From Phoronis australis (Eukaryota; Animalia; Phoronida): DNA of 64,000 nucleotides. This document shows, one piece after another, positions 5,518 to 59,781 of the stretch. The stretch covers positions 981,148-1,045,147 of the forward strand of contig NMRA01000079.1 of the NCBI GenBank assembly GCA_002633005.1. Reading direction: 5' to 3'. Each line of letters starts with the position of its first letter. The stretch's first letter is position 1. The notes below the pieces were generated by a model that saw only the letters and a list, made by a program, of their open reading frames with translations, was not told the DNA's origin and did no database searches. The translations under genes were made by a program, and so were the position numbers.

Positions 5518-5572
5518 ATGGCTGCTCTTATTGTGATTGCATTTGGAGTTTCTGTTTTATGTTACCACTACG
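5518..5572 (+). CDS. Pseudo-reprolysin/CUB gene exon 1: signal peptide
   Basis: Acceptor tttcag at 5502, aaaacATGg context, MAALIVIAFGVSVLCYHY(G), phase-1 donor G|gtaaat. Confidence 0.65.
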
Positions 5573-11500: not shown

Positions 11501-14500
11501 TTGTTCATTACAAGTCTAATCCTTTTTAAGGGAGTACTCAAAGTGCAAAAGGCGAACAGGATCCCTCGAAATCGCGACGAATCCCTATTGCGTTTGTTAT
11601 ATCAGAAAACATGACCAAATGTCTAACCGATAGCAATGTCAAGAAACGACCCTCGCTGGAAAAGCTTATTCAGAAGAAAGTCACAGGCCAGGTCAGTGTA
11701 ATCGTCGGAAATATGTATGTGTCCATGCAAGTAACGAACAATTTTGCAATTTCGTATCACGATATCCACAGTTAGGTGGTCGAATACCAACCAATGCCTT
11801 CAAGTTTCAGCGAATTTGTAAAATGTCGTTTCTTTAGGTAGTTTTTCTGTGTTCAAGCAGATGATTAGGTCATAGTTACATAATAACGTCGGGATCGTCG
11901 CATGACACTTGCAGTATTCCATCACATGTTTCAGTAACAATTTTTTTAAAACTTGTCATGGAAAGAAACCAATATGTTTGCTAACCTTAGAAACAAATTC
12001 GTACGAACAGTCAACCTATGATTCGCTGTCACACTGAACATAATTAAGATTACAGAACTTGCATTTCAAAAGTCATTCCATTCATTACTATTTTAATTAA
12101 TGGTTGCTTCCAAAGCGCTTTCATTGGGAATTGATCGATTGCATTGTGCAGGGTTAGTAAATTTATAAATGAGACGCAAACAAAGTTTAGTTTTTACTAT
12201 ATTCTGCAATCAAAAATACCAACACATAAATGTTCGCTCCCGGATATAGTAGCTACTCTGATGCTCTCAATTCTACAAAGAAAGCAATTCTCGAAATGCG
12301 GGTCCTTGCAAGAGACTATGGAATGTTTTAACGAAAGTTAAAACCCTCCAAATTTATCTGATAATATTTCAGTTCAACAAATTGTGGAGAAAGCCAAAAC
12401 TGGGCGCAGACATCGATATTAAGGTTGAAGTGCCTTTGATCCATTACATGACGAAAAAAGAAGAGGTACAGTGTACATGTATAAATCATTAACAAGGCAT
12501 TTGCGTATAGCATCTGCAAGAATTATTCGACATTGGCGTTTAGGGATGTAGGGACTGGTGGAGTAGGAGCAATGGACTGCCAGACACAATTCAGTCAATC
12601 AGTATGAAACCAACCAATGGAACTGGAGAGAGTACACTTTTATGTCCAATCAGCAAATGGCGAGGACACGCACATCCCTCAAGTATTAAACTTTACCTGT
12701 GTTCAAACAAGTAATGCTGCCTGCACATTATGTATTTCTTACAAAACGCCATCTACCCGTAAGTGTCACAAATAAACGAGGCAGCTAGTCCATGTAAAGA
12801 CTTATACATGTACGTCTAAGTTCTTGAAATGTTTTGTCGAGCGGCATCTGACGCTTGGAATGTTGTGGGCAATCGTCTGATCCCCAAGAAAAACTTTCAC
12901 AGTGACCTGAAGATTTGAAGAATCATTCATATAAATATGTACATAACATGGTTTAAATGCATTTGCCATGCTGCGGATTCATGACCAGTGCTGACACCTA
13001 ACGAAGCACAATAAATTTTACATAGACAGCGCTTTTGTTTACAGCAAGAGTGGATATTCCTGGCTAAACTGCACTCGAAAAGTCCATCTACAAGCGAAAG
13101 TCTACGCGCCTTTTCGTGGTGGTTACATGACCAAGACGTCTGGGTCAAGAGCAAGGCTGTTACAACCGTTCTCATCATCGACTCGTAAGAGTACATTTCA
13201 CGAACAGTAACTCATTGTGGAGACCAAAACTATGCTTCAATGTCACAATAAATAACAATCGAGTCGTCCTTTATCGAACTTCAAGCTACATTCAGAAGGT
13301 CAGCTACTGTAAATCAGCGACATTTACATTTACATTTACATTTACATACATGTATGTCAAAACTTCCTTCAGCAAACACCGTATCCGACGTGCGACTATC
13401 GCTTTGCAGCGAAACCGTGCGTATTGTGCCAACGTTGTCTAGTGTAGTTGAGCGCAATCACGTTCGTTAGAAATCATTTCTTTTAGAAGTTTTCACAAAT
13501 CGTTAACCAATCGTAGCTGTAAAAGCATGAAAAGGTCGGTTAGAGATGTCAGTACAGATTGGCTCAATTTTAACAACGTCATTAAACAATACATGTAAGC
13601 TACTACCGATATTGATGAGAGACAGCGGTAGCTCGCCAGCACTGTTTCTCTTGTTGAATAAGGGTCACTACATGGCGTATACGGTTCTGAGATTCTACCA
13701 CAAAGACAAAATATGAACATTCGACGACAGCGATATCTGTCAGCGTTACAGTCAGAAAATGCATTCCGCTGTAATATTCTCCGTTTCGGTTTTAGGGATT
13801 ATTCCATTGGCGAAGGAGGAAAATTTTATTTCACCATATACACTAAAGGGGGATTGTGCGATCGAAATACCGTAACTGTGATGACCGGAGGTTCCGCGGC
13901 CAAGCCACTACAATTGGGCAAGTTAGCAATGGCGATGGCAAAAGGGTATATTCCTTCGTTTTGATTATGATATCAAAATTAAACTGAATCTCTTCATCCC
14001 ATGATCACAATAAATATTATAATTTGTTTTGTTTCAACACTGATAAGTGAACAAAATGATTCCGATTGCTTCTGTTGTGTTAACTGACGACGATCAAAAG
14101 GTTAGATGAGGGAATTATATTCGCAAGAGAAAATTTGGCTTTGAGGATTACGAGGAATCGGTCACGACATAAAGCTCTTGACGAGACTTGTACATGTACG
14201 ATTATTCACATAGGTTGGGAATTGAGAGACAGGACTGCGTAGGAAATGGCACGTATAACCCATACGCCAAAATGGATTGGTCAGCATGCAGTAAATCAGA
14301 CGCTGCCAGGATATTCAGGTGCGCTATTACTGAAACACAAGTACATGTACAGGTGTACCTTGCTGGATGGAAAGTCAATGTGTTTCGTTCTAAAATATTA
14401 AAGGGTGATGTAGACCATAATCTTAAGTTACTGTAAGTACTTGCTCACGAGATAACCAGGCGTCCAGTCTCAACGTGAGGGTAAACCGCCTTCCACCAAG

Positions 14501-17500
14501 TGTGGGACGTGGGTAACGTATGTACAGTACATGTACAATGTATTCATAGAAGGAAGCTATGCAATGCACCGGTAGACATTGGAAATTGTTTAGTGGTGCA
14601 AACGCTTAACAACACAACATGTCATCTCAACCGCACTAAAAAGAAAATTACAAATCTCCTTCACATGTTTGGCAGCAGGTATGAGGCACATATTAAAATT
14701 TTGCGCCTCATACAACGTTCCCTGCTACCACATACAAACGACGATCTGCTGCGGACTGAGACGGCTAAAGTTCGTACAGCTGTTCGCTGTTCTGTCTCGG
14801 CACTTTCTTTGGCGAGAAATGGCTAATGCATGTATCGTTTGACGTGCCTGAGTATGAGAGTTTAATTGCCCTCTCCAGTGCAATTAAATTTCAGGACTAT
14901 TTGGTTAACCCAATGCACATGGAATCCGTGTTACTGAAAGACTAATATCACATACACCGATCTACTTTCTTTTCAAATCATAACTGTGAAGTGATTTTTT
15001 TCTACTACGGTGAACTGAAAATCGCGTTTCAATTCATAAAGCCTGAATGAATAAGGTAACGCGACAAGTGAGTGTACACAGCCACTCCACCCACCACTGT
15101 TGCCGCGTGAACCAGTTTCAGACACAACACCCCAAGTTTAGTACACTCAGCTTAGAAATTTCCATTTCATTCCAGTAACAAGCGGGCTTTACCCTGCCTA
15201 GAATACATGGAAGGGATTATGCCGCCCGTGATATCACGTCCCGGAACAAGAAACAATGGGTGTAATGTTGACCAGGAGCTCAATAAATCAGGTAATCCAT
15301 AAGAATGTGTGAATTTAAGTTAAGCGTTTTGGTCATTTTTGTTTAATCTGACGTTGTTTTTTCGGACACGGATGAGCTCGGTATACGCCTGATCCAAAAC
15401 CAACGGTGGAGATTGTGCCTCGCGAGAATGTGAAGCAAGACTCTGAAATTTGTTAAAAATAATTTTGTCTGGCGAGAGTATGGACAAAGTGAGATAAGTG
15501 CTCAGATTTAGTGGCAGGGAGTTTTTATACTTTAACGGTGCCAGGGTTATTCGTCCAACAACATAACTCTATGGTTTGATAGGCTGAGGCTGTTCCAATG
15601 CGTTGCGTTCACAGATACTCACAGTACACGTTTCATTTGACATGGTACCAACAACTGAAATATCTGATTTTCCAAATAACACAGTCAAAATGAAATCCTC
15701 TACCCCGCCCCCTACCCGCTAGACGTCGATAACGCCACTAAAACGCCAACCTCTTACATGAATTTTAAGGGTTTAGATCTCCGTTTGTGTTGGCATCTGC
15801 ATTTATTCTACAATATTCTTTGTTCCAGCAAAGCCGTTTCTCTCTATATGACCCGTTGACTCTCCTTCCTTTTCCAGACGTTGCAATCCGTAAGTAAAAT
15901 GTGTACAACTCTTAACAAAGTTTAGTTATTGAGCGAACGGAAGTAGACGAGCGATATGCAAACGAGCAAGGGCTCCGTTCTCAGATGACTTGGCATAAGT
16001 AAAGTGGTTAGCGTGTATTTCCGGTATGTATACCTACGATAACATACATGTAGCAGTGCATGGTACACAACAATCTGTATAGGTAGAACACACTTAATGG
16101 CGATGTCACACCATAATGGGGATGTCAGTAAACCAAAACATTATGAGACAAACTAGTGATATCTGGAAGAGTTTTGAAGACCGAAGAATATCGCTAAGGG
16201 ACTTAGTGTGATAAAGTGCTTTGCTTCTAATGAATATTGATATTTCGCAGTCTTGGATTTTCTTGCACATTACGGCGTTTTCCCGTTGATCTAATATTGT
16301 TCGAGTCTATAGCCCAACAACAAGTTAGGAAGATGACCCATGTAGCCAATGTCTTACACGACTGATTAACTCCATACTGGCATTCGAGGATGGAGGCCCA
16401 ATAATTGCTCTAGTCTCCAATAAGATCGTATCTAGCGTGACTGGGCTTTGTTGTTTTAATACAAGTTAAGCTATAACAAATTTTAACAAAAGCCAAGAGC
16501 ATTTCTGAATTTCTCGTCATATGCGGACCATTTTTAGTTTTTGAATCAACAAAATCGCCCAACTACAACCGAAGTTACGACAATCAATTATTTCCGAACG
16601 TTACACAAATTCGCTCTGGCCGTTTGCCTGTGTTCACACGTGGTCTGTAATAAGCCTCGTAGGTAATTGGCCTGCCTCTTGTCACACCAGACAAAAGACT
16701 GTGCTTGGCAGTTAACAAAGAAGCTAGATGTTATCACACGACCACAAACCTCTGCGCCAGGTAAAGTCACTGAACGGGAGAACGCCGTCATGTTTCGTGA
16801 GATTCTTGTCTCAGTTTAACGCACGCCACATAGGGGTTCTTAGAGCTCCGTACAGCAGGTGGCCTGGATGACAGTTTTCCTTAAATTCTCTAACCGCAGA
16901 AAGAACATTAGTTGCAGCCATCGCATCTGCAATGGATATCGCTGGATAATTTTATCTACTGGGGATGGTATTTACAGTCACAAGAAATACTTTTTTCAGG
17001 AATAGCACCGAAGTACCTTCGCACGTATGTAGGCGACGTGTCAGTATCCACAATCCGCGTAATGACCAATTGTTTTTCTGTTAAGGTTGTTCGAGTCATG
17101 GCGTTGGCGATCGATCAAAATTGCGCCGATTTCCGATTGCGCTGTACATATCGGTGGACCTTGGCAAACGACTGACCGGAGGAGAGCCTGAATTACGACC
17201 TCAACTGAATAGCTATATTCGAAATCAAAATATGGACATGGTCAGTTGTGTAGACATACTCAGGCTGTGATTGGAGTTACTGTCGCCTCCCCCGTGTAAG
17301 CGACAAAAAATAAACAGATACTTCCCCTTCAAAAAATAGTAAGACCCATTCCACGACATCCTATAGATACATGTACGTCAGTAAAAAGGTATTGCATTTT
17401 TAAAAGGACTGCCGTTGGACCAGATCTCAAAACTCAAATCAAAACGTGGTTCCTGAAGACTTGGTGTTATGATGTAGTATGGGCATTCCACAGACGAATG

Positions 17501-47500: not shown

Positions 47501-50500
47501 GGAACTTAAGAATCTTAGGAAAGGCTATTTGGGAGGATTTCAGGTAATTTGAGTCGAAACTATTTTTACTCAAGAATTCAAGTTGTCCTATCGACGATCG
47601 CGAAGCAGCGACGCATCAGTCGGCAAGTTTTCGCCCTGGGATTTCAGCACATTTTTTTTAAAAAGATCGTAATTTAACAACAGAGTTTGATAGCAATGCA
47701 CCACAGTTTTGTAGCTAGTCTGTCATAGGTTACACATACGTCACAGCGCGTAAATTTGATGAATCCTAGCTTCCGATTTCACCCGTTTCGGAGACCAGGT
47801 TTTAACTGCCGTAGGCTACAAAAAGAGTCCCCCTGGGCGCTTATTAGAGCGAATACGGTAGCCCTAATAGATGGTGACATCAGTGCACGAAACGATGATT
47901 TTTATTTAAATTAGCAGCAAGTTTGTGGTGACTGGCGCCAACGGCCGGGTGACCGAACTTCGGGCTTGGCGAGTAGATTTTCTGGCTCCGGCACTCACCC
48001 AGCTCCGGGCGAGCAGAAAAGCCTGGATATATCCCTGACTTCCACACTTTTTCAAAAGAGGGAAAACTATAAGGAATGGCTGAGGAGGGTAAAAGTCTAG
48101 TTGCCATAAGTATTGGTATGTTTTTGGAGATCGATTCAACATCAGACAACTTGATTTTTGGTAACGTTGATAAGTCTTTTGACCACAACAACTTGCAGGA
48201 CGATGCAATGTTTGTCAAGGCGCCGCGTTTTCGAGCAACACGACAGCAGCGCCCCGCGTTCGTGAAAGAGGTGAATACAGCACTGCAACTGGTGTCCATA
48301 ATTAGTATACATGTATGCTTGGGAGAAGATCACGGCGTGCACAAACTTGACACATGAATTCCAGGGTCCAGCCTGTCCATTGCTTGGAGGTCAATGGTCT
48401 TGCAATGGCAACAAATGATAACTGATCTATCAAACGAAACTATCACTGCCTTTGTGAACACTTAACAATTGACACTATCTTTAAAGTTCCTTTTGTACAA
48501 TAGCTTGACCTTGATAAAACCTGTAGTCATCACAACAGGACACAGTAGTATTTTTCATCTTATCAATTTACTGTTCAGTAGGGCCTATACATGTACAAGT
48601 TTAGCATTTTACTTTAGATTATATACGTTTAATAAACCAGCACTGCTTGATGACTGTCTCCTACATGCGACTCCAATACAGGGATACAGGACCTGCTTTG
48701 TAATTGAAGTGTTCATGTAACTTGGTTCAGGTTGAGTCTATCATCTGCTTTTGTCGATCCCGGTGGTAGTTTGAATTGACTACGTAATTAAAATAAATGC
48801 GTCCATGACTTAAGCATATTACGATTTATTACATGTCATGTAGCAACTCTTGTTTGCATTTTCATGTATGTGATGTTGAGAATTACTGCTGTGAAATGCA
48901 TTTGTTGTTGTGCAGGTTAAACTTTGGCACGGAAAATCCATTCTGTTCGTTAATGTGATTGCGTCATTGCTGTTAAAGCTACTATAAACATGCCTTCCAT
49001 CAAATAAACCAACTCTTGATTTTGACTATTTATTGTCTCGGCCCATTCCTTACCCATAAGTGCAAGTGATTCCTGGAATTAGAAAAAAATGGCCTCAGCT
49101 TATGAAGTTGGCTTGAAACAGCGTGTCAATTTTCTAGGTGAATTCTTTCCAAGCCAAGAAACCTATCCTCACGTTCATACACAATGCAAGTCTAAGCAGT
49201 ACATGGGTAACAGTGATACATTATATTCCATAGGATACACATTAATGCAAATTGAAATTTCACTGTTCTAACTGTTTCGGACCAATTATGTTTAGTTCTC
49301 GAGTTAACTTGTCAATACTGACGCTAGAAATCTGATAGCAGTCGACATTCAAGGACGATGGTTTTCGAAGCACACGTTAGGCCCTCTGTCCTGTGATCTG
49401 ATGGATTGTGTTCTTGATAACGTGAGTCGCATACTCAAACTCCGAAAAGGGTACAAAAGATAAAAGCAAGAACTTTTACCAACCTCCCACTGTCCCTAGC
49501 CTTTTATTTACAAAATCGAGACCATACCACCGATAATACAAAGTCAACGAGTATGTTTTATTGGTTTCTGTGCAGTATCACGGTATTTTTAAAACGGATC
49601 ATGTGAATTGAATGTTCGGTAACACTAGTATTCGCTGAAATGTGGCCGAAATCACATGGTCTAATTTAAAATGCTCTGCAATATCTCACGTAATCTTGTT
49701 AAGTCTTGTTCTTATCGAGGTCCTAGCATTACTGAACTCTACCCAAGTTAGGGTTATGTAACGCTAGGATCTGCGGAAGGTCCCACGAGGTTGTTTGATA
49801 TAGTGCCGCGTGTTTTTAATGAGAACATGCTCGTAAAATTGATATTTCTAGTCGCGAGTCAGCTACATGTAGTGAGCTCTACCCTTTTTTAAATACAGAT
49901 CGGTACTGCAATATAATTGAAGGTTTGAAACAAAAGCATTGCCAAAGCACCTACTGTATAAACCTGCGTGCAATCCAAAAAGCGGACTTTAGATTAAAAC
50001 GGTCAAACCTTGATGGCATTTGTGCCCGCATAATTACCGCTTTGTTAAACTAACATGTAGTCTGGCTTCCGTCAAGTATTACGATTCCTACTGTATGTTC
50101 TTTACAAGGCGTGAAATGATCTCTTTCCTAGGGGATATTTTGGTATCAATTTGAGTGGCCTTTGATAAATCAAAATATTCTTGTTTGGTAACAGAACTGA
50201 GACCTGCCTTATTGAATATAAACNTAGCATTACTGAACTCTACCCAAGGTAGGGTTATGTAACGCTAGGATCTGCGGAAGGTCCCACGAGGTTGTTTGAT
50301 ATAGTGCCGCGTGTTTTTAATGAGAACATGATCGTAAAATTGATATTTCTAGTCGCGAGTCAGCTACATGTAGTGAGCTCTACCCTTTTTTAAATACAGA
50401 TCGGTACTGCAATATAATTGAAGGTTTGAAACAAAAGCATTGCCAAAGCACCTACATGTACTGTATAAACCTGCGTGCAATCCAAAAAGCGGACTTTAGA

Positions 50501-53500
50501 TTAAAACGGTCAAACCTTGATGGCATTTGTGCCCGCATAATTACCGCTTTGTTAAACTAACATGTAGTCTGGCTTCCGTCAAGTATTACGATTCCTACTG
50601 TATGTTCTTTACAAGGCGTGAAATGATCTCTTTCCTAGGGGATATTTTGGTATCAATTTGAGTGGCCTTTGATAAATCAAAATATTCTTGTTTGGTAACA
50701 GAACTGAGACCTGCCTTATTGAATATAAACTCTGGGAATGAATTACATACTTGGAGTGGTTCGGTCAGGATTTTTTTATGTTCTTTTTCAGTTTAGGTCT
50801 GCCAGGAAACCAGCTATCATGTTCCGAGGGCATTATGGAATCCCGGGAGACGCATAAAGGTTGGTCCGCTTGTAGCAAGCAGAAATTAAAGAAGATACTA
50901 AGGTACTGAAATTAAACCTTCTACTAACCAAGGCTTTACATGTTACTTAAACGTTAAAGTATATTTGAGAACAGACGACTTGGTTTCTTTTGCTGACATC
51001 GCTTTTTGCATTCATGAACATAATTTAAAGTGATGTCATTACCGACAACATCGTGTGCTACGCATGCGCAACCCAAGAACGGAAGCCTCAAGAGAAAAAC
51101 CTGGTGACATGTACCATCAAGAGATGATTGACTACACGAATCGAATAACTACATGTATTCAGATGAACGGAGGGCGGTAATAGTTCCCGTAGTCACAGTA
51201 GTTTTCTATATAGGCCTACACTGGACAATTAAACGTACGAAATCCACGCATAAAACCGCAATTACAGATCACTCTTTTTAGAATCCTTTCTAATCCTGAC
51301 CAAATCTCGACAAAATCTCCTCAGGTTTTCTATGTTCATTTTGTCGAAGTTGTTACAATTCATTTCGCAAGTCCATTGTATCAAGTGACATTTAATGCCC
51401 AAGCAAACTAGTAACGTAGATCAATTACACTGTGAACACTATTTTATTGCGACTAAAGGTCGAACAAACTTCTTAAGTCGGAGTTCTGTCGAATTTTGCA
51501 TATACTATTTTGAAAAATACTTTAGACTGGGCTAGCCCAGCTTTCAGTTACATGAACACAACATCGCCTAACCCCACCTATCATTCACATGTTGATCATT
51601 TCGGTGTGACCGCAATGAAATTTATCTGGCAATGGAAACGTGTGACTTACAAAACAACACCAATGTGCAAGCTGCCGCATTGACTGAATCTTCGGGATTT
51701 TGACTGGATGCCTTAAGCATTGTTGGTTGTTATCAACATTTGTTGGCATCCATGCTTGATTACCCCTAACAACAGAACAATCATTTATCGTTCAAACTTG
51801 CATATTTATAAGAAAACGCACAGACGTGGATAACATCTGGTGGACAGACGTCCTATTTGACGCCTTACGACAAATTAGGGTAACATTTTAAGAAAAGGGA
51901 CACATTAAGATGGCCGATATCCTGGCAGATAACTTGCGACAGCCTTTCGCCAATAGAGCCTAATCAAAAATCATTTAATTGGAATGTATACATTTAGGTA
52001 TATCATTGCCAGAGTAAATTGGTGTGTTTTGTATCCCAACACAATTAAGAAATAGCTACCGTGATTACACTTTCCGTCAATGGCGGAATCTGGCAAAGCT
52101 AGTGCCTCGTCTTCATTTTTCGCAAAGTAACCTGTTCTACGAAAAACAGCCTTGCTCTGCCATCTGATTCGTTGGCAGACGCTTAAAAGGAAGAACTGAC
52201 TACGGTTTGTTTCATCATGCGTGTGGTAAAATAATACTCCTTGTGATCGTAGGGCACGGAAGCATTGTCAAAGGGTGTGTACTTTTGACAATCATCCTCC
52301 ACTAAATTTGTTCACAAGATCACTTTACTCCATTCCCAGCGACCCGTGGATATACTCTTGCTTGGAATATCAAGAAGGTTCCATGCCAGTGCCGAAGGCT
52401 TCTCTTGGCCTTATTTCAGCGGAGGACTTTGAGGCAATCAAACAAAACTGTAATGATGACATGGTTGCTACTCACTGGGTATACAAAGGCAAGTTCTCCA
52501 GGACAATTAGCTACACACTTCTCGCCAGACGCTTCTCGCCATGGGTAAGTCGGCTAGGGACACAGAGCATTGTTTGAGAATACATATATTTCGTGTTCAC
52601 TAGTCAAAAATGCCCTTGTACCTCTTGGCCCCATTCATGTTTCAGTGTTAAAGAGTTCCAAGTATTAATTAAAGGTGTATTTGCATGAACCTAACTATGC
52701 TAATAAATAGCAGGAACTAAACGTCAATCTATTTTAACTTCATATGCACTAAACGAGGTGCAGATGTATTCGTAGACACAATGTAAATGTAAAAACAAAA
52801 AATAGGAAATAGGTGGCCTTTGCACGAATGGCGTATCTTAGGCGCTCGCATAGCCAAGGTCATGCACTGTTATTCCTCACAACCACGTCACGATAATTAC
52901 TGGATTCGGTTGAGTGATTTACGGAGGATCATTTTCGACCCAAAATTCGTCCAAAAAAACATTTGGCAGTTTTCAACCTACTTCATATTCACATAATCGC
53001 TTGTTTCTAACTAATGTGACCAACTATGAAACAATTACAGCAATAAGGAATTAGCGTGCATGTTCCACTTTAAATTCTAACCGTGTCAGTCTGTCAAACT
53101 CATTGCATTATTACGTGCAGAGCTACCTAAGATAGAACTGAGGGACCCACATGGATTATATGTGTGCTTGTATGCTACATCTAATTTCCCAACATCAACC
53201 TAAATCAACGCTTCCACTTACCAAGCTATCGCGTAGTCTAGTACACGTTAATCTTTAAGACCGGCCTCTTTCGTCAGTGGATAAGGGAATGTTCATGCAC
53301 AGTGAGGGTATTTGACATCGCCACTGCCCGGGTGAGATTGTGGATTATGAAAACTAAATATGTCTTTGGAAATCGAACTCGGTTTTTCATCGGCAACAGA
53401 CGAATTTAGAATGGTTTGCCAAAATCTTAGCTGCCTGAGTAGCACAATAACGGGTTGAATTGTATACATCACTGCACAATAGTGCTTAACTGGGTGGTCT

Positions 53501-56500
53501 TGATTTCCTGAAAAGAATAGTGTTGTTTCAGCGAGTGAGCACGTCACGCACGCTTGGCAGCCTTCATAAAGACAACTCGTAAAAATTTAGACGGGATGGG
53601 CCTTAAAATCTTTGCTACCAGGATACATGTTCAAGCAACCTGGGGCTTATGTAGAAATTTGTAGTTACTGGGATTAAAATTTGTTACAACTAAATGTGGT
53701 TCTCGACTTTTTTTAGCTGAGGTTTTCCGAGAGATCGTTATCCGACATTCAGATCAATTTCAAGTCGCCTTGATGACTTTTGGCTTAGGTAAAACTGGCT
53801 GTATTGAAACAAGTCATAGTACGTCTTTTGTATGTATCGCTACATATATTTCACGCGCTTTGATTAGCAACGCCTGGACAATATCTGCAAGTGGACGCCG
53901 TGCAGACGACAAGTTGGCAGATTCAACCAACAATTCTATTCTGCAACTCCAAGAAACACAGTGGGTTATCTGTGCGGAAAAAACAAGGTAATTACCTGTT
54001 TTCAAAACGGTGTCATATCCCGTTGCGCTGTTGCTTTGAAAATGTGATTCCGTTTTTTTTGCCTGCTCTGGGGTATCTAAAAGAACACTAGTGGGTGAAA
54101 TCGTTACCAAAACACGTATTTTGTTTAGATAGCGTCCCCTAAATCTTAGCTTTTTGCATGGATTGGTGCGTTAACGTAGGTCAAGTGAACCTTTGTCCTA
54201 AAATTCTCCTAATTTTCGTTCGTATAGCCGCAAGTGGTCACAAATAGAAATTCAAATATAAGCAAGCAGTTGGCTCTACAAAGGATGGTGAATACCATAA
54301 TGCACAATTTCTTGTGCTTACTACGCGCATATTTTCATATCCTCCCATTGTTAGTGTTTTCCACACAAAGTCTTCGGTCTTTTTATTTTTGCTCATTTTT
54401 ATGGCATTCAGGACAATGGTGCGACCATTACATAATATGTAGGCAGCGTTTTACATGTACACATTTTAGTACCATACTACGGATTGATCTAAAGCTCCGT
54501 CTGCGATCCCCTCGACCCCCACACCCTTTGACCCTCTCAATCCAATTTACTGTGCACAATCTCGACTCTATCTGAAAATACAAAAAGCGCTGACTTGCAG
54601 GAACAACGAGTCGGGCCGTGAGTTCGACTGACTTTCCCCTTTTTGCAATAAAGAGAGTAGATTTGGCAAGTTTGAAAGCCAAAAACGGAAAAATAAACTC
54701 GACCTAATCAAACTAAAGACCTACCAACGTTACAAATGTCGTCCCTGGCAGAGTTCAATCGTCTCGTCTGCTCTTCAGTGAATGATAGATTTAACCTTTT
54801 ACGTAGAGTGCGAAGAACCGACAAAAACGTAATTTCATTAGTAAATACAATTTAGAAAACAAACTGTTGACTTAAAAGCATCTCTACTTTACATGGAGTA
54901 TATTATAGACGAGTATACAACAGAAAGCAAATAATAAAAATGTAAAATAATATACATTCACGATAACGTATCTCTCACTAAGTTTAGTAGAACTGGGCCA
55001 TTGGTAACCAATTAAGAATCTATTTCCGTCGCAGCGGCAGCACAACCACAATTCGTTATTTCAGAACACGTTCTCACACCAATTTCTGTTTGTAAGCACC
55101 CACCTGAGTCAGAGTAGACTCTCGTGTAGTTATGTCTTTTGGGAAAGTAATTCAGTGTCGTATTAATGATTATAAAATGTGCAGGAAGCGAAAAGATACA
55201 TCTCTTGCCACAGGTCGTTGGTCAAGGAGGTGTGGGTCGTGGGTTATGGGTCATGGGGTTGTGGATCGAGAGGCGTGTGGGGGTTGCGAGGGCTTTAGAA
55301 CAATCCGTATCATATATTCACCGCCTTTTCTTCTTCCTGCAACGAAGTCCGCTCCCAGTCGCGGATTTAAGGGGGCATGCCCCCCTAAAATTCTAACAGA
55401 TACCATTTGGCAGTTCGGGATGCGAATCGATGACTAGCATATGCGCGCGCACAGGGGAGCTCGGGGGACGAATGCACAATGCATAGGCCTTCAACTAATC
55501 ATGTTCACCGTTTTGTTTTAGTAAAAATGTTCGCAAACCCAAAAATTCGATACCCCAGCATCCCTAGGTTTAGGTTGGACGCGCGCGAGTGGTGAAATTC
55601 TGGTTATTCCTGTGCCCTGACTCCCCAACACAAAATCCTGGATCCGCCCCTGCCTCCGAGACGCTCCATTAGTTGTCATCAAGAGGGACTGGCATAACTT
55701 AGATTATTCATGTATGTGAGAAAAAGTTTTGGGACAGTACACAGTAGATACACTGTTGGACCCACCCCCATTTGTCTCATTGTTTTGTCACCCCGCTGCT
55801 ATCCACAGCATGTCTCGCCGGAAAATATCACCGTTTTTGAGTAGTATGAACTGACCGTCAGCAGTTCACCCTCGTGTCAGAATATCTCTTCCCAAAAATG
55901 CGAATCAAAGCACCAATAGTATGATGTCCTTTAGGTTATGTATGACCTCTGGACATAATTATAGTTCATTATGCATTAATGGAGAGCTTTAAACGCAATT
56001 TCTAATAACGTTTTTTAGAACGGGGAATCTAGAATAGAATGTAAAATTTCCATATGAACCCGATCAGGCATATCTTAGGAATGATGATTCAAATTTAGAC
56101 ACATACATGTATGTGTGTACATTTTACTAGGGTCTAACACGACCGTAGATGTATATTCCTTACCAACCGACATTAAAATTGGTACGCAATCTGACAAGAT
56201 CTGACAATTCTTGATGGAACGTTTGAGAATACTTCATAAGTGACCTCGGACTTAACACATTTTTTGTCACTTGTAATGGTACTTGCGTAATCAGAAACGC
56301 AGTCAGCACATTTATAATGCTACAGGGTACTGACTAAGCACGTTATTTTGTTTTATGGAGCTCGTTCCAGTTCGGTTACCCAGATAGATATACATGTATT
56401 GCTAACACGCTCGTGTTCTTCGATTTTGGATTAGACCTCCACTTAATTCGCCCAATTCGATTTTCACTAAATTCACTTTGAACATCTATCTTCAGTATCT

Positions 56501-58088
56501 ATCAACAGCTATCTTCACAATTTCAGATTTGCGAAAATTCAAACCGTTGTGTATCGGCTGGAAACTCAGGCTGTGGTCAAAGAGAGACGTTAACAGAACC
56601 CGAGGGAGCCTTGTCTTCGTTTAGATTCAATGGCAAAGATTTCTACCTTCCGAACATGTTTTGTTCTTGGAGAATCAGGCTTAATAAGAAACAGCAAGTG
56701 TCTGTAAGTGACGTCAAATGTACTATAGTTCCGCAGGGTGTATCACGGCTCATGTATTTTTTCTCCACCTGCCACGAACTCCCAGAGCAATATGATACAT
56801 GTGCACGTAAACTCGTTCTTAATCCGACAGCATACGTTGTAGGCGAGTGAAAGTGACAGTTGGTAATAACACTGACCGTCAACTTCAATTGCAGTAGTAA
56901 TGACCACATTAGGCTGTTTTTCGTCATTTGTTTTTGGTTGTTATAATTTAGTTAGGACATTGTGAAAATTGAGAATTCTTTTCATTCACCATTTGAGGAA
57001 GAGACATCATGATCGAGGACACGCATACGCCCGTTGTGGCTTAGGTGGATTATACTATGGACACACTGTCTCTAAATAAGACCAACTGGGTGTTCCTTTC
57101 ATCAGCATACAGAACAACTTGTCTATACCCCGAGGGAATAGTAGCTACATGCACGAAGAGAATTTAAGTTCACGAATATATTATTTTTTGAACGTACACG
57201 TACATGTAACTCCTCAAATTTGAGTTTTCCTTAGGTTTTGCTATGCCTATATGCTGCTTCCTGAGTCCTGTTGTGCAATCATAACCTTAGCTGAGGGTAA
57301 TTTGGCACTCATGATGGTGTTTGTTTGAAAAACATTTCAACTAAAGGATCGGTTTCATGAAAGTGGCCTAACGCAGAAACTTGGTCTTAATCAATACCTT
57401 GAAATGATGGATAGTAACTAGCAGTTACGTGTGTAAATTTAAGGAGTTTCCACTTTTGATCAAGTGTGGTTTAAAGTTTTTTAAGAAACAGTTGTGTATA
57501 CATGTAGGAGCATAAGACTAAACTTTGTCGTAACTTTTGTGAAACTTTTCATGAAACACACCCCAGCAGCAATGCACAGAACAAAATTTTAAAGGTAACG
57601 TTCAAACGATACTATAAGTGACCAACGTGTGGACAAAGGTATTCTTTTTTCTTTAAAATTAGCTGGAAATCCAGGTAATGGATGTCCTCGGCTACGATGA
57701 TGATAACTGCATGGTGAAAACCGGCTACGTCATAATTGGTGACCGGGTGTCTGTTTTCGACGGACCGAGCTCCAAGTCAAAGCACGTGATGACGTTCTGC
57801 AATGGAAAACGGGCGATGATTATTTCTTCTACATATATGCTTTATGTAGAATTTGTAACAGACAGTAGCCTAACGTCAGTAGGTACCGGGTTTAAGGCAA
57901 CGTACACATCCGTTGTGCTTGAAAATGACGGAGAGCCGTACGTGGTGATATTAGGCCTACCAGAAGAAGACGGTGAGACTCGTGTGGCAAAGTTCCTCTC
58001 CAACGGATGCATGAAACCAGTGATATCAATCGACACTATTGTCTCTGCATTGCATATGTTAGTTATGGGAATGCGTGGTCTACTGTAG
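5518..58088 (+). CDS. Gene model (25 coding exons, 3810 nt, ~1269 aa): secreted/GPI-anchored protein with 3 catalytically dead reprolysin (M12B/ADAMTS-like) domains, 2 ADAMTS Cys-rich domains and 2 CUB domains
   Basis: Hand-spliced GT-AG exons (listed individually) join in one frame without stops; paralogous exons repeat with matching lengths and phases (93 nt x3, 177 nt x2). Single-transcript continuity at 15291->17367 and 29533->30293 is inferred from phase only. Confidence 0.7.
6210..6860 (+). mobile_element. Degenerate LINE (L1/Tx1-like) ORF2 C-terminal fragment
   Basis: Frameshifted peptides LWKEV, KPLWF..NKPVFYK, EGIAHVHDFL, YEEFIQKY, LRWFQFRLVHRI are typical of the region downstream of RT / zf-RVT. 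Confidence 0.65.
7653..7920 (+). mobile_element. Kolobok-like non-autonomous DNA transposon end fragment (right boundary approximate)
   Basis: TTAA followed by AGGCCT...; similar to the element starting at 34378 and ~41943. Confidence 0.4.
8850..9604 (-). mobile_element. Possible solo LTR-like repeat
   Basis: TG...TGACA ends, internal ~70-bp duplication (9043-9168), TATA-like motif and ttctaga-rich tail like 25927-26829; no TSD seen. Confidence 0.3.
10405..10785 (+). mobile_element. Degenerate THAP-domain DNA transposon remnant
   Basis: Diverged reverse complement of 31376-31756. Confidence 0.6.
11531..11691 (+). CDS. M12B-like domain 1, exon a
   Basis: cctttttaag / CAG|gtcagt; STQSAKGEQDPSKSRRIPIAFVISENMTKCL...SLEKLIQKKVTGQ aligns with KRRLRLAIFIT...LQGYLRTIFLDK of domain 3; phase 1->0. 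Confidence 0.75.
12373..12465 (+). CDS. M12B-like domain 1, exon b (93 nt)
   Basis: tttcag / GAG|gtac; FNKLWRKPKLGADIDIKVEVPLIHYMTKKEE; same length as 20035-20127 and 32082-32174. Confidence 0.9.
13045..13184 (+). CDS. M12B-like domain 1, exon c
   Basis: tttacag / gtaaga; QEWIFLAKLHSKSPSTSESLRAFSWWLHDQDVWVKSKAVTTVLIID(S), like ADAMTS 'LxxFCxW...AVLLT'; phase 0->2. Confidence 0.88.
13796..13945 (+). CDS. M12B-like domain 1, exon d (degenerate zinc-binding helix)
   Basis: ttttag / GG|gtatat; DYSIGEGGKFYFTIYTKGGLCDRNTVTVMTGGSAAKPLQLGKLAMAMAK(G); phase 2->2. Confidence 0.88.
14214..14318 (+). CDS. M12B-like domain 1, exon e
   Basis: cacatag / CAG|gtgc; LGIERQDCVGNGTYNPYAKMDWSACSKSDAARIF with the reprolysin WSxCS motif; phase 2->2. 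Confidence 0.9.
15176..15291 (+). CDS. M12B-like domain 1, exon f
   Basis: ttccag / CAG|gtaatc; NKRALPCLEYMEGIMPPVISRPGTRNNGCNVDQELNKS, homologous to ALPCLEYQVG..SRPGT (27407); phase 2->1. Confidence 0.85.
15878..15889 (+). CDS. Possible 12-nt micro-exon (or 120-nt exon from 15770) in the domain 1-2 linker
   Basis: Strong polypyrimidine acceptor ctccttccttttccag and gtaagt donor; phase 1->1; not counted in the 25-exon model. Confidence 0.4.
17367..17500 (+). CDS. M12B-like domain 2, exon a
   Basis: ctatag (or gtcag at 17381) / ATG|gtaacg; TCTSVKRYCIFKRTAVGPDLKTQIKTWFLKTWCYDVVWAFHRRM; phase 1->0 like the other 'a' exons, weak sequence similarity. Confidence 0.55.
17810..18720 (+). mobile_element. 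Dispersed repeat containing a tRNA-like (Pol III A/B box) segment, interrupted by a Kolobok-like element
   Basis: Homologous to ~34820-36290; A box TGGTGCAGTGG (18058-18068), T-arm/B box CCGGGTTCGAACCCGG (~18635-18650). Confidence 0.7.
18073..18605 (+). mobile_element. Kolobok-type DNA transposon (long TIRs, TTAA TSD, THAP start), with an N gap at 18395
   Basis: ttaa|AGGCGAAGGCAACC...GGTTGCCTTCGCCT|ttaa; ~135-bp TIRs; MPHCCCVPGCTNY at ~18337 is a THAP N-terminus. Confidence 0.85.
19480..19915. repeat. Dispersed repeat, inverted homolog at ~54500-55010
   Basis: Shared blocks such as 'aacagtttgtttt..aaattgtatttact' and 'catttg.aacgttggtaggt' in reverse complement. Confidence 0.55.
20035..20127 (+). 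CDS. M12B-like domain 2, exon b (93 nt)
   Basis: ttccag / GAG|gtatgc; INAIWKNPHFGFSINIKAEVKLIHYMTVNEE, clear paralog of 12373-12465. Confidence 0.92.
21686..21804 (+). CDS. M12B-like domain 2, exon c
   Basis: tttccag / gtaagc; QQVEDMIGNHTLIRAFQSWIFQSKSWIHSKAVTTVYLIN; shares RAF..W....SKAVTTV with 13045 exon. Confidence 0.9.
22315..22548. mobile_element. Harbinger-like MITE (same family as 24213-24444)
   Basis: Imperfect TIRs GTTCCAAGAAA ... TTTCTTGGAAC. Confidence 0.55.
22781..22906 (+). CDS. M12B-like domain 2, exon d (degenerate zinc-binding helix)
   Basis: tctttttcag / GG|gtaagc; GSRGSYLTDGNLCRRNTVAVLGLSTPAQPIPLFSLASAMAA(G); phase 2->2. Confidence 0.9.
23882..23983 (+). CDS. M12B-like domain 2, exon e
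   Basis: cttcag / CAG|gtaagt; LSLTGGGCEKALESLPDGMKWTYCAVAKAVKIF (WTYCA corresponds to WSxCS); phase 2->2. Confidence 0.88.
24213..24444. mobile_element. PIF/Harbinger-like MITE
   Basis: TIRs GGGCCCGTTCCAAGAAA...TTTCTTGGAACGGGCTC flanked by CTG/CAG (CWG target). Confidence 0.7.
24720..25290 (-). mobile_element. LTR-like fragment related to 25927-26829
   Basis: Shared blocks 'gtgctaatagctttc', 'ctccagccagtg', 'ctgtctctatagctgg'. Confidence 0.4.
25927..26829 (-). mobile_element. Putative solo LTR
   Basis: TGTCAA...TTGACA inverted termini, TATA-like motif on the - strand (~26485), internal ~62-bp tandem duplication (26627-26745); no clear TSD. Confidence 0.45.
27407..27614 (+). CDS. M12B-like domain 2 end / Cys-rich domain start
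   Basis: ctttccag / TGG|gtaggt; DKWALPCLEYQVGTLSRASRPGTLSRDDFEAVKNNC...YSPW, paralog of 52340-52544; phase 2->0. Confidence 0.92.
27810..27932 (+). CDS. ADAMTS-type Cys-rich (disintegrin-like) exon, copy 1
   Basis: ttcttccag / AAG|gttagt; DTEKNICRWTPCHDMRNVTHLQRFVFVTPWMKPGYSCGLNK (GxxCGxxK). Confidence 0.9.
28320..28341. repeat. (TA)n microsatellite
   Basis: Direct inspection. Confidence 0.9.
28567..28743 (+). CDS. Cys-rich end + CUB domain 1 N-half (177 nt)
   Basis: tttcag / AAG|gtaaac; ICLTETHCVSAGDSGCGQTRELEGTKGYFSSFNYDGISSYARGLSCSWRITVSKNMRVK (CUB CG..G..S..Y....CxWxI). Confidence 0.93.
29200..29533 (+). CDS. CUB domain 1 C-half + linker
   Basis: ttttag / CAAG|gtaaaa; VTFIRMDV..C..GDVVVVHDG..LCG..IISTTHVVFVKFISD....GKGFLASY; phase 0->1. 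Confidence 0.92.
29500..29890 (+). repeat. ~202-bp tandem duplication covering the exon 3' end and splice donor
   Basis: 'ctagacaaacacctccaaggtaaaattgtggttaagt' at 29515 and 29717. Confidence 0.9.
30293..30438 (+). CDS. M12B-like domain 3, exon a
   Basis: tctttcag / AAG|gtacga; EKQTPNGLKRRLRLAIFITKAFAHTWKTKAMTRQAGLQGYLRTIFLDK; phase 1->0. Confidence 0.85.
31496..31720 (-). mobile_element. THAP zinc-finger domain remnant of a DNA transposon (intronic)
   Basis: MKRCVCGDCSN...KFP...LCSAHFKESCF = C2CH THAP signature; truncated; the conserved Trp is Cys here but Trp in the 39.7-kb copy. Confidence 0.85.
32082..32174 (+). CDS. M12B-like domain 3, exon b (93 nt)
   Basis: gtttcag / GAG|gtatgg; LNKLFDDDQFGNDVGIRLDFPFIYTMSDKDE. 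Confidence 0.92.
32597..32733 (+). CDS. M12B-like domain 3, exon c
   Basis: ttccag / GG|gtataa; NEVLEMARRMKTRAPNATALSFLQWAVRRADYQASKSHLPVLIVD(G); phase 0->2. Confidence 0.88.
33498..33656 (+). CDS. M12B-like domain 3, exon d (vestigial HExxH = AHDIGR)
   Basis: cctcttcag / gtaagt; ETEFRYSAYKTGLYVHAGDICNQRVALVEEGRLLDRKGDPISDVQMAHDIGR(T); phase 2->2. Confidence 0.92.
33964..34369. mobile_element. PIF/Harbinger-like MITE, absent from copy B
   Basis: cag|GGCCCGGTCT.CAATCTTT.TACTCGAA...TTCGAGTACAAAGATTGAAGACCGGGCC|ctg; empty site 'gtatccaggttaaagg' at ~41930. Confidence 0.85.
34378..36660 (+). mobile_element. Nested TE cluster: Kolobok-like host containing a hairpin/tRNA-like repeat (~34460-36312); right boundary approximate
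   Basis: ttaa|AGGCC start; hairpin 34476-34582; TATACCACAT...ATGTGGTATA inverted motif; tRNA-like A/B boxes; host resumes at 'aaagttattaactttga' as in the 7653 copy. Confidence 0.55.
35070..36173. mobile_element. Non-autonomous DNA transposon, ~70-bp TIRs, 8-bp TSD (P-element- or hAT-like)
   Basis: CACAGGC.CTTGGGTTTATCGCAAATGACGTCACTC...GAGTGACGTCATTTGCGATAAACCCAAGAGCCTGTG; flanks tggtaagg / tggtaaag. Confidence 0.85.
38418..38563 (+). CDS. Copy B of domain 3 exon a
   Basis: Same splice sites as 30293-30438; 1 nonsynonymous and 2 synonymous differences. Confidence 0.75.
39530..39910 (-). mobile_element. Copy B of the THAP remnant (frameshifted)
   Basis: Colinear with 31376-31756. Confidence 0.75.
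40250..40342 (+). CDS. Copy B of domain 3 exon b
   Basis: Identical to 32082-32174. Confidence 0.8.
40771..40907 (+). CDS. Copy B of domain 3 exon c
   Basis: Two synonymous differences from 32597-32733. Confidence 0.8.
41460..41618 (+). CDS. Copy B of domain 3 exon d (AHDVGR)
   Basis: Same splice sites as 33498-33656; 5 nonsynonymous and 1 synonymous differences. Confidence 0.8.
42562..43142. mobile_element. Insertion present only in copy B (GTTAACTTCG-rich DNA-TE-like fragment)
   Basis: No counterpart at 36778-36790 of copy A; multiple gttaacttcg motifs. Confidence 0.6.
46751..47860. mobile_element. Tc1/mariner (pogo/Tigger-like) non-autonomous element
   Basis: ATTCG.CCTAATAAGCGCCC ... 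GGGCGCTTATTAGAGCGAATACGGTA inverted ends; left tip eroded. Confidence 0.6.
49724..50730 (+). repeat. ~500-bp direct duplication across the N at 50224 (likely contig overlap / haplotype artefact)
   Basis: 49724-50223 vs 50225-50730 differ by two SNPs and one CATGTA indel. Confidence 0.9.
50792..50902 (+). CDS. M12B-like domain 3, exon e
   Basis: ttctttttcag / AG|gtactg; LGLPGNQLSCSEGIMESRETHKGWSACSKQKLKKIL keeps the Met-turn (IM) and WSACS but not the third His; phase 2->2. Confidence 0.92.
52340..52544 (+). CDS. M12B-like domain 3 end / Cys-rich domain start
   Basis: ttcccag / TGG|gtaagt; DPWIYSCLEYQEGSMPVPKASLGLISAEDFEAIKQNC...FSPW; phase 2->0. Confidence 0.92.
53868..53987 (+). CDS. ADAMTS-type Cys-rich exon, copy 2
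   Basis: gattag / AAG|gtaatt; QRLDNICKWTPCRRQVGRFNQQFYSATPRNTVGYLCGKNK, paralog of 27810-27932. Confidence 0.9.
55356..55652. mobile_element. Short hAT-like MITE
   Basis: CAG..GCGGAT... and AAATCCTGGATCCGCCCCTG ends; the same 3' end occurs at 4541-4560. Confidence 0.45.
56527..56703 (+). CDS. Cys-rich end + CUB domain 2 N-half (177 nt)
   Basis: tttcag / gtaagt; ICENSNRCVSAGNSGCGQRETLTEPEGALSSFRFNGKDFYLPNMFCSWRIRLNKKQQVS. Confidence 0.93.
57345..57566. mobile_element. Harbinger-like MITE
   Basis: Imperfect TIRs GTTTCATGAAAGT ... ACTTTTCATGAAAC. Confidence 0.4.
57663..58088 (+). CDS. Terminal exon: CUB domain 2 C-half + GPI-signal-like tail
   Basis: Acceptor ttttttctttaaaattag; LEIQVMDV..C..GDRVSVFDG..FCNG..IISSTYMLYVEFVTD....GTGFKATY...LSNGCMKPVISIDTIVSALHMLVMGMRGLL*. 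Confidence 0.92.
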   Translation: MEIQVMDVLGYDDDNCMVKTGYVIIGDRVSVFDGPSSKSKHVMTFCNGKRAMIISSTYMLYVEFVTDSSLTSVGTGFKATYTSVVLENDGEPYVVILGLPEEDGETRVAKFLSNGCMKPVISIDTIVSALHMLVMGMRGLL

Positions 58089-59564: not shown

Positions 59565-59781
59565 AGGCGAAGGCAACCTTTTTCCATCTCATTTTGAGCT
59601 AAAATAAGGTTGGTTGGTTATCCTAGACATATTTTCCACTTAATTACAGCTTTTCGTAATTTTATTAATTACTCGTCTGCTACTCCGGAAATGACGTTTT
59701 AGGAGGCAAGCGTTTCCCGCCACTTGGTTTTGCGTTGACTTTACCGTGCGAATCTGTTCTATTCTACTTTTGTTTTGTGCT
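59565..59781 (-). mobile_element. Second copy (one end) of the Kolobok-type element, truncated by the N at 59782
   Basis: ttaa|AGGCGAAGGCAACC...; reverse complement of ~18405-18605. Confidence 0.85.

Follow-up and report, generated by a model that had tools for sequence, protein, structure and literature searches.

The stretch analyzed here is a 64,000-nt window of DNA from Phoronis australis (contig NMRA01000079.1 of assembly GCA_002633005.1, positions 981,148 to 1,045,147 of the forward strand; all positions below are counted from its first letter). It looks eukaryotic, with ∼40% G+C and no long open reading frames (ORFs). All-against-all comparison of its short open frames revealed old paralogous pieces that lie collinear on the + strand, at 11.5 to 15.3 kb, 17.1 to 29.6 kb, and 30.3 to 33.7 plus 50.8 to 58.1 kb, and a young duplication in which ∼30.1 to 38.2 kb recurs at 38.2 to 44.6 kb. 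The old pieces, termed units A, B, and C, belong to a gene rebuilt at 5518-58088 on the + strand, with 26 GT-AG exons that join into 3,843 nt and 1,280 codons and a single stop at the end. This long multi-exon open frame contains three related exon cassettes and is transcribed as one unit. On balance, we favor a single expressed gene for three tandem modules that are likely derived from the M12B (reprolysin) family, with a Cys-rich spacer and a CUB domain after both the second and the third, whose product probably binds rather than cuts. A preliminary description of the locus had joined 25 exons (3810 nt) in one open frame; the open frame stands, the counts do not, and all of the splice sites that it proposed occur in the sequence where it placed them.

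Each unit begins with a six-exon cassette (exons a to f), and the threefold repetition reported earlier holds, as exon lengths and phases line up across the units. Exons a to f measure 161, 93, 140, 150, 105, and 116 nt in unit A, 155, 93, 119, 126, 102, and 208 nt in unit B, and 146, 93, 137, 159, 111, and 205 nt in unit C, with the same phases in all three (1>0, 0>0, 0>2, 2>2, 2>2). Exons g, h, and i of units B and C are 123/120, 177/177, and 334/426 nt long (B/C). The 93-nt exon (exon b) and the 177-nt exon (exon h, units B and C) are found three times and twice, respectively, as had been described. Sequence identity in the protease-like part is 42% between A and B, 25% between A and C, and 23% between B and C, and 39% between B and C in the Cys-rich and CUB part; cysteines and core hydrophobic positions are kept among units that are only 23 to 42% identical. 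Internal duplication is thus confirmed by collinear units with shared intron phases. Exon f of unit A is 92 nt shorter than that of unit B and ends in phase 1, and owing to this shortening and a 12-nt microexon unit A splices into the next cassette. Judged from the identities, an ancestral [M12B-spacer-CUB] unit would have duplicated first to give B and C; A would have arisen later, from a second duplication that took in the protease-like part of B, and the sixth exon of A would have been shortened such that its phase fits the next cassette via the microexon.

All exons lie on the + strand. Exon 1 (5518-5572) holds the ATG and the predicted signal peptide MAALIVIAFGVSVLCYHY and ends at a phase-1 donor; it was chosen by hydropathy, being the most hydrophobic among 132 ATG..GT phase-1 candidates upstream of 11531. 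The first M12B-like module begins with exon a of unit A (11531-11691, KSRR-IPIAFVIS...), placed by paralogy to 17086-17240, GT-AG sites, and frame. Exon b (12373-12465) shows 53% identity to exon b of unit B and fits by GT-AG sites and frame, and exon c (13045-13184) was placed by paralogy and by the best polypyrimidine tract, at 13045 (alternative acceptors at 13051 or 13030). Exon d (13796-13945, GGLC...LAMAMAK), in which the zinc motif is lost, was likewise placed by paralogy. The donor of exon e (14214-14318, WSACS) is given by reads (14318>15176, 16+10 reads) and its acceptor is inferred, whereas the shortened exon f (15176-15291, PCLEY..., phase-1 end) has read joints on both sides. The microexon at 15878-15889, with AG/GT flanks, links unit A to unit B.

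Unit B is defined by read joints throughout. Exon a (17086-17240, KLRR-FPIALYIS) is bounded by the joints 15291>..>17086 and 17240>20035, and is followed by exons b (20035-20127), c (21686-21804), d (22781-22906, LASAMAAG, zinc motif lost), and e (23882-23983). Exon f (27407-27614) carries the end of the M12B-like module and the start of the Cys-rich spacer, which continues in exon g (27810-27932, ICRWTPC...YSCGLNK). The first half of the CUB domain is encoded by exon h (28567-28743; Pfam CUB E 2.1e-4, profile positions 1-40) and the second half, with a linker, by exon i (29200-29533; Pfam CUB E 2e-4, positions 56-110), which leaves through the joint 29533>30293.

Read joints also delimit exons a (30293-30438, LKRR-LRLAIFIT), b (32082-32174), and c (32597-32733) of unit C, as well as exon d (33498-33656, GDIC...QMAHDIGR; joints 32733>33498 and 33656>50792), which retains a remnant of the zinc-site helix. 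Exon e (50792-50902, LGLPGN..C.EGIM..WSACS), with Met-turn-like and C-terminal helix motifs, is entered from 33656 and 41618 and leaves by 50902>52340. The acceptor of exon f (52340-52544) comes from reads and its donor from paralogy to 27614. Exon g (53868-53987, Cys-rich) shows 49% identity to exon g of unit B and fits by GT-AG sites and frame, exon h (56527-56703) encodes the first CUB half (Pfam CUB E 3.9e-4), and exon i (57663-58088) encodes the second half (E 3.5e-5), a C-terminal tail that is hydrophobic by hydropathy, and the stop. The unit A exons other than those with read joints and the last four exons of unit C were positioned by paralogy, GT-AG sites, and phase; eight introns are based on paralogy, GT-AG sites, and frame, namely 5572>11531, four introns within unit A, and the three at the end of unit C.

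Transcription across the units and the duplicated head of unit C

Reads from three RNA-seq runs of the same species (X1, X2, and X3) were compared with positions 14000-33999 and 33450-53449. X1 and X2 contained stranded reads whose + strand GT..AG joints cover 17 of the 25 introns, both inter-unit introns included, and X3 contained no joints of the gene in the regions compared; expression is therefore sample-specific, being clear in two of three runs. Reads at both inter-unit joints bear out the earlier proposal of a single transcription unit over all three units. Three joints that had been singled out beforehand were recovered, 29533>30293 with 40+33 reads, 33656>50792 with 11+3 reads, and 41618>50792 with 21+12 reads. 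A fourth, 15291>17367, proved wrong: reads run from 15291 through a 12-letter insert to 17086 (7+3 reads). The inserted letters occur only once in the window, at 15878-15889, with AG and GT flanks, and hence represent a microexon. The exon formerly placed at 17367 was replaced by this microexon plus 17086-17240, the paralogue of 11531-11691. The gene is missed entirely by an ORF scan, and its frame requires the 12-nt microexon.

A ∼200-bp tandem duplication at 29519-29921 starts within the last ∼15 nt of exon i of unit B and repeats the exon end and its donor (second ...DKHLQ|gtaaaa at 29735). Among the joints listed, none starts from the second donor.

The head of unit C is present twice in the assembly. 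The second copy of 30091-38214 lies at 38216-44553 on the + strand and carries exon copies at 38418-38563, 40250-40342, 40771-40907, and 41460-41618. The two copies (∼6.3 kb versus ∼8.1 kb) are 91.8 to 94.2% identical over aligned blocks, and 11 of 535 exon bases differ (2.1%, compared with ∼6% over the whole aligned blocks), six of the 11 changing a residue. A single N at 38215 directly precedes the first base of the copy, and the 101 bases before this N recur exactly at the end of the copy; at a second N, 50224, the preceding 500 bp match the following 506 bp at 98.4%. The RNA reads represent one allele that is a mosaic of the copies, matching the first copy in exon a, the second in exon c, and alternately one and the other in exon d. 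From 40906, reads continue into the next exon of either copy (33497 or 41459), and the 15 joints listed do not include 33656>38418.

The copy ending at 41618 had been put forward as an alternative cassette and is probably an assembly overlap, given the N at its start and the mosaic reads. A real fourth cassette was rejected in view of the N before the copy, the high identity, and the mosaic RNA allele. We consider 38216-44553 to be probably an uncollapsed overlap of two haplotype contigs; alternatively, the tandem duplication may be genuine and one of the copies silent. Direct duplicates at both Ns are the signature of contig ends that were joined with their overlap left unmerged, with four coding exons duplicated as a result. 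As the gene spans two assembly joins and has four exons duplicated, automated annotation will probably break it up or assemble it incorrectly.

Probable domain ancestry and the missing zinc site

By profile matching, the protein has two CUB domains (PF00431), in agreement with the preliminary description: Pfam matches were obtained on all four half-domain exons, at profile positions 1-40 and 55-110. The spliced B/C CUB module aligned with the tolloid CUB domain with an hhalign score of 52.5 (P 4e-8, Prob 94.9%, 107 columns).

The ∼230-residue module that occurs in all three units likely descends from a reprolysin/ADAMTS domain of MEROPS family M12B (Pfam PF01421, PF13582/3, and PF13688), to judge from profile-profile similarity and motif remnants. 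The reprolysin-like motifs listed previously are present, albeit unevenly, with FxxW, GxxC, and CLEY in units A, B, and C, and AHxxG and IM in unit C only; WSACS is found in units A and C and GYxCGxNK|IC in units B and C. Unit C keeps A-H-D-x-G-R-x-x-G, followed by C..GIM, WSACS, and CLEY, while units A and B lack even the His. As references, we collected bacterial genes with HExGHNxG and kept 31 ORFs with clear reprolysin-type Pfam matches. The A/B/C alignment scored 25.1 against these 31 domains (hhalign, P 0.005, 147 columns), a score that none of 150 column shuffles reached (maximum 19.8); the reversed query gave 10.8. Against the 11 domains that also match PF01421 the score was 29.6 (P 0.0013, 105 columns), again reached by no shuffle (0 of 100), and this alignment pairs LxxFxxW, GxxxxGxxC, AHDIGRTLG with AHEiGHNfG, and WSACS with xSxCS. 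Units C, A, B, and A+B alone scored 23.7, 16.4, 17.0, and 17.6 against bacterial M12B (P 0.006, 0.09, 0.07, and 0.07), each aligning in one N-terminal register. An astacin/tolloid (M12A) origin of the units was rejected, the score against astacin being 11.9 (P 0.56, 8 columns). The other controls gave 11.5 (P 0.55) for the Cys-rich/CUB part against M12B, 10.7 (P 0.52) for tolloid CUB against M12B, and 10.2 (P 0.64) for the units against tolloid CUB.

The M12B zinc consensus is HEXXHXXGXXH(D), with the Met-turn 12 to 24 residues downstream, according to excerpts of PMC4885070 and PMC4448532. A regular-expression search found HE..H nowhere in the 1,280 residues, and the zinc-binding HExxH is present in no unit, in line with the dead catalytic site suggested before; the single match to H[ED]..[HR] in the protein is HDIGR at residue 930. 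At the zinc-site positions, unit C reads H-D-I-G-R-T-L-G-L-P-G, unit A AMAMAKGLG, and unit B ASAMAAGLS. The GIM of unit C places its Met 10 residues past the third-His position, and units A and B have no Met there. Since HExxH is missing, no unit can hold the catalytic zinc by the definition of the family itself as given in the same excerpts (PMC4885070, PMC4448532), and the protein should accordingly be unable to cleave peptide bonds.

Predicted role, alternative readings, and other transcribed sequence

The chain is predicted to have an N-terminal signal peptide and a C-terminal tail of the glycosylphosphatidylinositol (GPI) type. The N-terminal 19-mer has a hydropathy of 1.81 and the C-terminal 19-mer, at 1258-1276 of a chain ending at 1280, one of 1.59; hydropathy revealed no internal transmembrane-like segment. 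Six N-glycosylation sequons are predicted, and only ∼15 residues separate the predicted signal peptide from the first strand. The protein would enter the secretory pathway via the signal peptide, be retained on the cell surface via the hydrophobic, GPI-signal-like tail, and act at the cell surface or in the matrix as a non-catalytic binding scaffold, be it a ligand trap, an adhesion partner, or a co-receptor. Both the former substrate clefts and the CUB domains could serve as its binding surfaces, by analogy to inactive ADAMs and ADAMTS-like proteins. The role as receptor, adhesin, or decoy put forward in the preliminary description is likewise conjectural. If the M12B ancestry is correct, the known reuse of reprolysin/ADAM/ADAMTS domains would be extended to a domain triplicated in one chain, in three dead copies interleaved with CUB, and would provide a natural case for what a protease scaffold binds once cutting stops.

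An Arg-Arg pair directly precedes the first strand in every unit (KSRR, KLRR, and LKRR). Speculatively, this invariant pair may mark the position of an ancestral convertase site, at which the chain may be cut into three. The gene would then encode a lineage-restricted polyprotein that furin-like cuts divide into a free decoy module, a free module-CUB protein, and a GPI-held module-CUB protein, a proposal that we consider unlikely; if true, a set of protease-shaped binding proteins would be made from one gene.

Several results weigh against a single gene with M12B-derived modules and a binding role. The read-supported part of the model does not extend to eight of the introns or to the start codon and the 3′ end, and the joints of unit A are covered less deeply by reads than those of B and C; shorter isoforms may start downstream of unit A or end after 15291. 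Pfam was run exon by exon on 24 exons, each module being split over six exons, and returned nothing at E ≤0.1 on any of the 20 non-CUB exons (a to g) and no peptidase family, only SHOCT at E 0.26. None of eight Protein Data Bank (PDB) searches (exons d and f of unit C and profiles of exons b to g) returned an M12B chain, the matches being at chance level only (E 0.04 to 1.7). With the bacterial M12B hidden Markov model (HMM), the spliced units did not outscore 600 shuffles (hmmsearch), and among 75 single bacterial templates M12B domains did not rank above other families (Mann-Whitney p 0.56), though the top four of the 75 were M12B. HH-suite probabilities were 7% with the 31 domains and 18% with the PF01421 subset. 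Column shuffling is a lenient control, as it destroys local structure and flatters the observed score, and the AHxxG remnant, part of the M12B signal, had already been noticed in the preliminary description. Word-based searches of longer proteins with exon i of unit B and the exon-f alignment found no relatives, and the best 150 of 448 matches to a CUB-tail profile were generic multi-CUB proteins, none of them like the protease-like, spacer, and tail parts; three tolloid-like proteins among these 150 served as controls. Lastly, seven of the 12 listed exonic differences between RNA and reference alter a residue, including all four in the first CUB domain (H675Y, R692S, H701N, and E743G, in exon i of unit B, 29200-29533), which fits weak constraint or fast evolution. 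In further searches, exon d of unit C had no usable match in the ESM Atlas, and the Cys-rich spacer (∼105 aa, exons f, g, and h), which may resemble the disintegrin-like module of ADAMTS proteins (PF17771), had no exon-level Pfam match and, with the f and g profiles, no PDB match.

Could the locus instead be a tandem cluster of two or three paralogues, in which the inter-unit joints reflect read-through (conjoined) transcripts and A, B, and C are separate proteins? If the last exon of unit B were read on past its donor at 29533, an in-frame stop would follow after six codons, but the read depth in the bin after 29533 is fully explained by the exon, with no extra depth in the intron, so that this stop is not used; moreover, the B>C joint is as deep (40+33 reads) as neighboring intra-unit joints (30+30 and 19+30). 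Read-through at the 15291 donor would meet a stop after three codons, and the joints of unit A are thinner (16+10 and 7+3 reads) than those of B and C; yet the phases fit only via the dedicated 12-nt microexon, and among the joints listed 30293 and 17086 are entered from no other donor. A further point for separate genes is that short reads cannot reveal whole molecules. However, neither inter-unit intron has a signal-peptide-like ATG exon (best 10-mer hydropathy 1.46 and 1.02, compared with 2.9 for exon 1), which disfavors independent secreted products from B and C, as on their own these could not be secreted. We regard such a cluster as very improbable. Hardly more credible is a decaying or neutrally drifting gene that is transcribed and spliced into no useful protein. 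Residue changes in seven of 12 RNA differences and in six of 11 differences between the two exon copies, the loss of the catalytic motifs, and the lack of relatives beyond the CUB part would all suit it, but the frame is intact over 1,280 codons in 26 exons with canonical splice sites, the exons of the two copies have diverged by 2.1% against ∼6% over aligned blocks, cysteines and core hydrophobic residues are conserved despite the low identity among units, and expression is specific to the samples of two out of three runs.

The remaining alternative concerns the ∼230-residue module, which might be an unrelated or new fold bearing reprolysin-like motifs by chance, with CUB as the only known family in the protein. 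The protease-like exons without Pfam or PDB matches, the bacterial M12B HMM without a match, the HH-suite probabilities of 7 to 18%, and the single templates that do not separate by class are what it would predict. Against this, two profile-profile alignments, which cover the N- and C-terminal halves in collinear order, beat all 150 and all 100 shuffles and score higher than the controls with the reversed query, with astacin and CUB, and with the Cys-rich/CUB part of the same protein. Although diverged, the three units each align on their own in a common register, and the order typical of the family is kept by the zinc-helix remnant, the Met located 10 residues past the position of the third His, xSxCS, and the final Cys. 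We therefore consider a chance resemblance unlikely. The M12B assignment of the preliminary description is thus moderately supported and not secure: the profile-profile scores exceed all controls, but the HH-suite probabilities are low and exon-level Pfam and PDB searches gave no match. The reading that we prefer is one expressed gene for a non-cutting binding protein.

Other sequence in the window is transcribed or repetitive. Both strands of inverted repeat copies at 18000-18700 and 59600-59830 (with Ns at 18395 and 59782) show heavy RNA coverage in each of the three runs, and at the N more than 100 reads per run extend into sequence that the assembly lacks (loose ends at 18389 and 18396). 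The element is probably a transposon that is expressed and contains an assembly gap. A 40-nt stretch at 45188-45227 has ∼60 to 85 stranded reads per run that continue on both sides into unrelated sequence with high agreement, and has the appearance of a piece that another expressed gene also contains, rather than an exon of this one. Intronic stretches at 24000-24700, 26000-27340, 33900-36100, and 46100-48800 have both-strand reads in all runs, including the non-expressing X3, and are probably repeats transcribed elsewhere in the genome. An intronic THAP-domain remnant on the - strand at 31499-31756 (Pfam E 1.4e-4), with related pieces near 10.4 to 10.8 and 39.6 to 39.8 kb, is likely a decayed transposon. 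Pfam searches of the 61 other window ORFs of at least 85 aa gave nothing but a THAP remnant and one low-complexity match, and Rfam and tRNA scans of the window gave no matches.

Relation to known systems

A full-text phrase search of the literature, with supplements outside its scope, found no description of tandem M12B domains, a result that leaves their absence from the literature and from protein databases unproven. Within the module, the order xxAHxxGxxxG ... C..IM ... WSxCS ... CL at the domain end presumably recalls the catalytic domains of ADAMTS proteases. ADAMTS13, with the order metalloprotease, disintegrin-like, thrombospondin type 1 repeat (TSR), Cys-rich, spacer, ..., CUB-CUB, has in common with the protein described here a module of M12B type (probable in the present case), a Cys-rich stretch, and CUB further on; the presence of CUB in ADAMTS13 is given in an excerpt of PMC4885070. 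ADAMTS proteins have a central TSR after the disintegrin-like module, and all are predicted to be active, according to excerpts of PMC4448532. The present protein contains no W..W..C, and no exon gave a TSP_1 match. Unlike ADAMTS proteins, it has no pro-domain, no TSR, and no zinc site, it has three protease-like modules instead of one, and its C-terminus is predicted to be membrane-anchored, whereas ADAMTS proteins are secreted. Because TSR and pro-domain are absent, the gene product is not an ADAMTS.

The functional model proposed here is provided by members of the M12B family that no longer catalyze and instead work as binding proteins, the inactive ADAMs and the ADAMTS-like proteins. Eight of the 21 human ADAMs are without a working zinc motif, as stated in an excerpt of PMC4448532. 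Unlike the present protein, inactive ADAMs combine a single protease-like domain with a true disintegrin domain, an EGF domain, and a transmembrane helix, and ADAMTS-like proteins differ from it in having no protease domain at all. Neither group interleaves CUB with repeated protease-like modules.

Tolloid/BMP1 proteins, which combine an astacin (M12A) domain with CUB/EGF, share with this protein the order of a metzincin-type domain, a probable one in the present case, followed by CUB domains. However, the units are unlike the astacin domain (11.9, P 0.56), and the protein has no EGF domain. Several tandem protease domains, some of them inactive, are found in ovochymase and the polyserases, carboxypeptidase D, and angiotensin-converting enzyme, and in ovochymase they are interleaved with CUB. 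These proteins, which belong to the serine proteases or to M14/M2, retain one or more active domains. The domains described here differ in being M12B-like and in lacking the zinc ligands in all three copies, and to our knowledge they would represent the first tandem M12B architecture.
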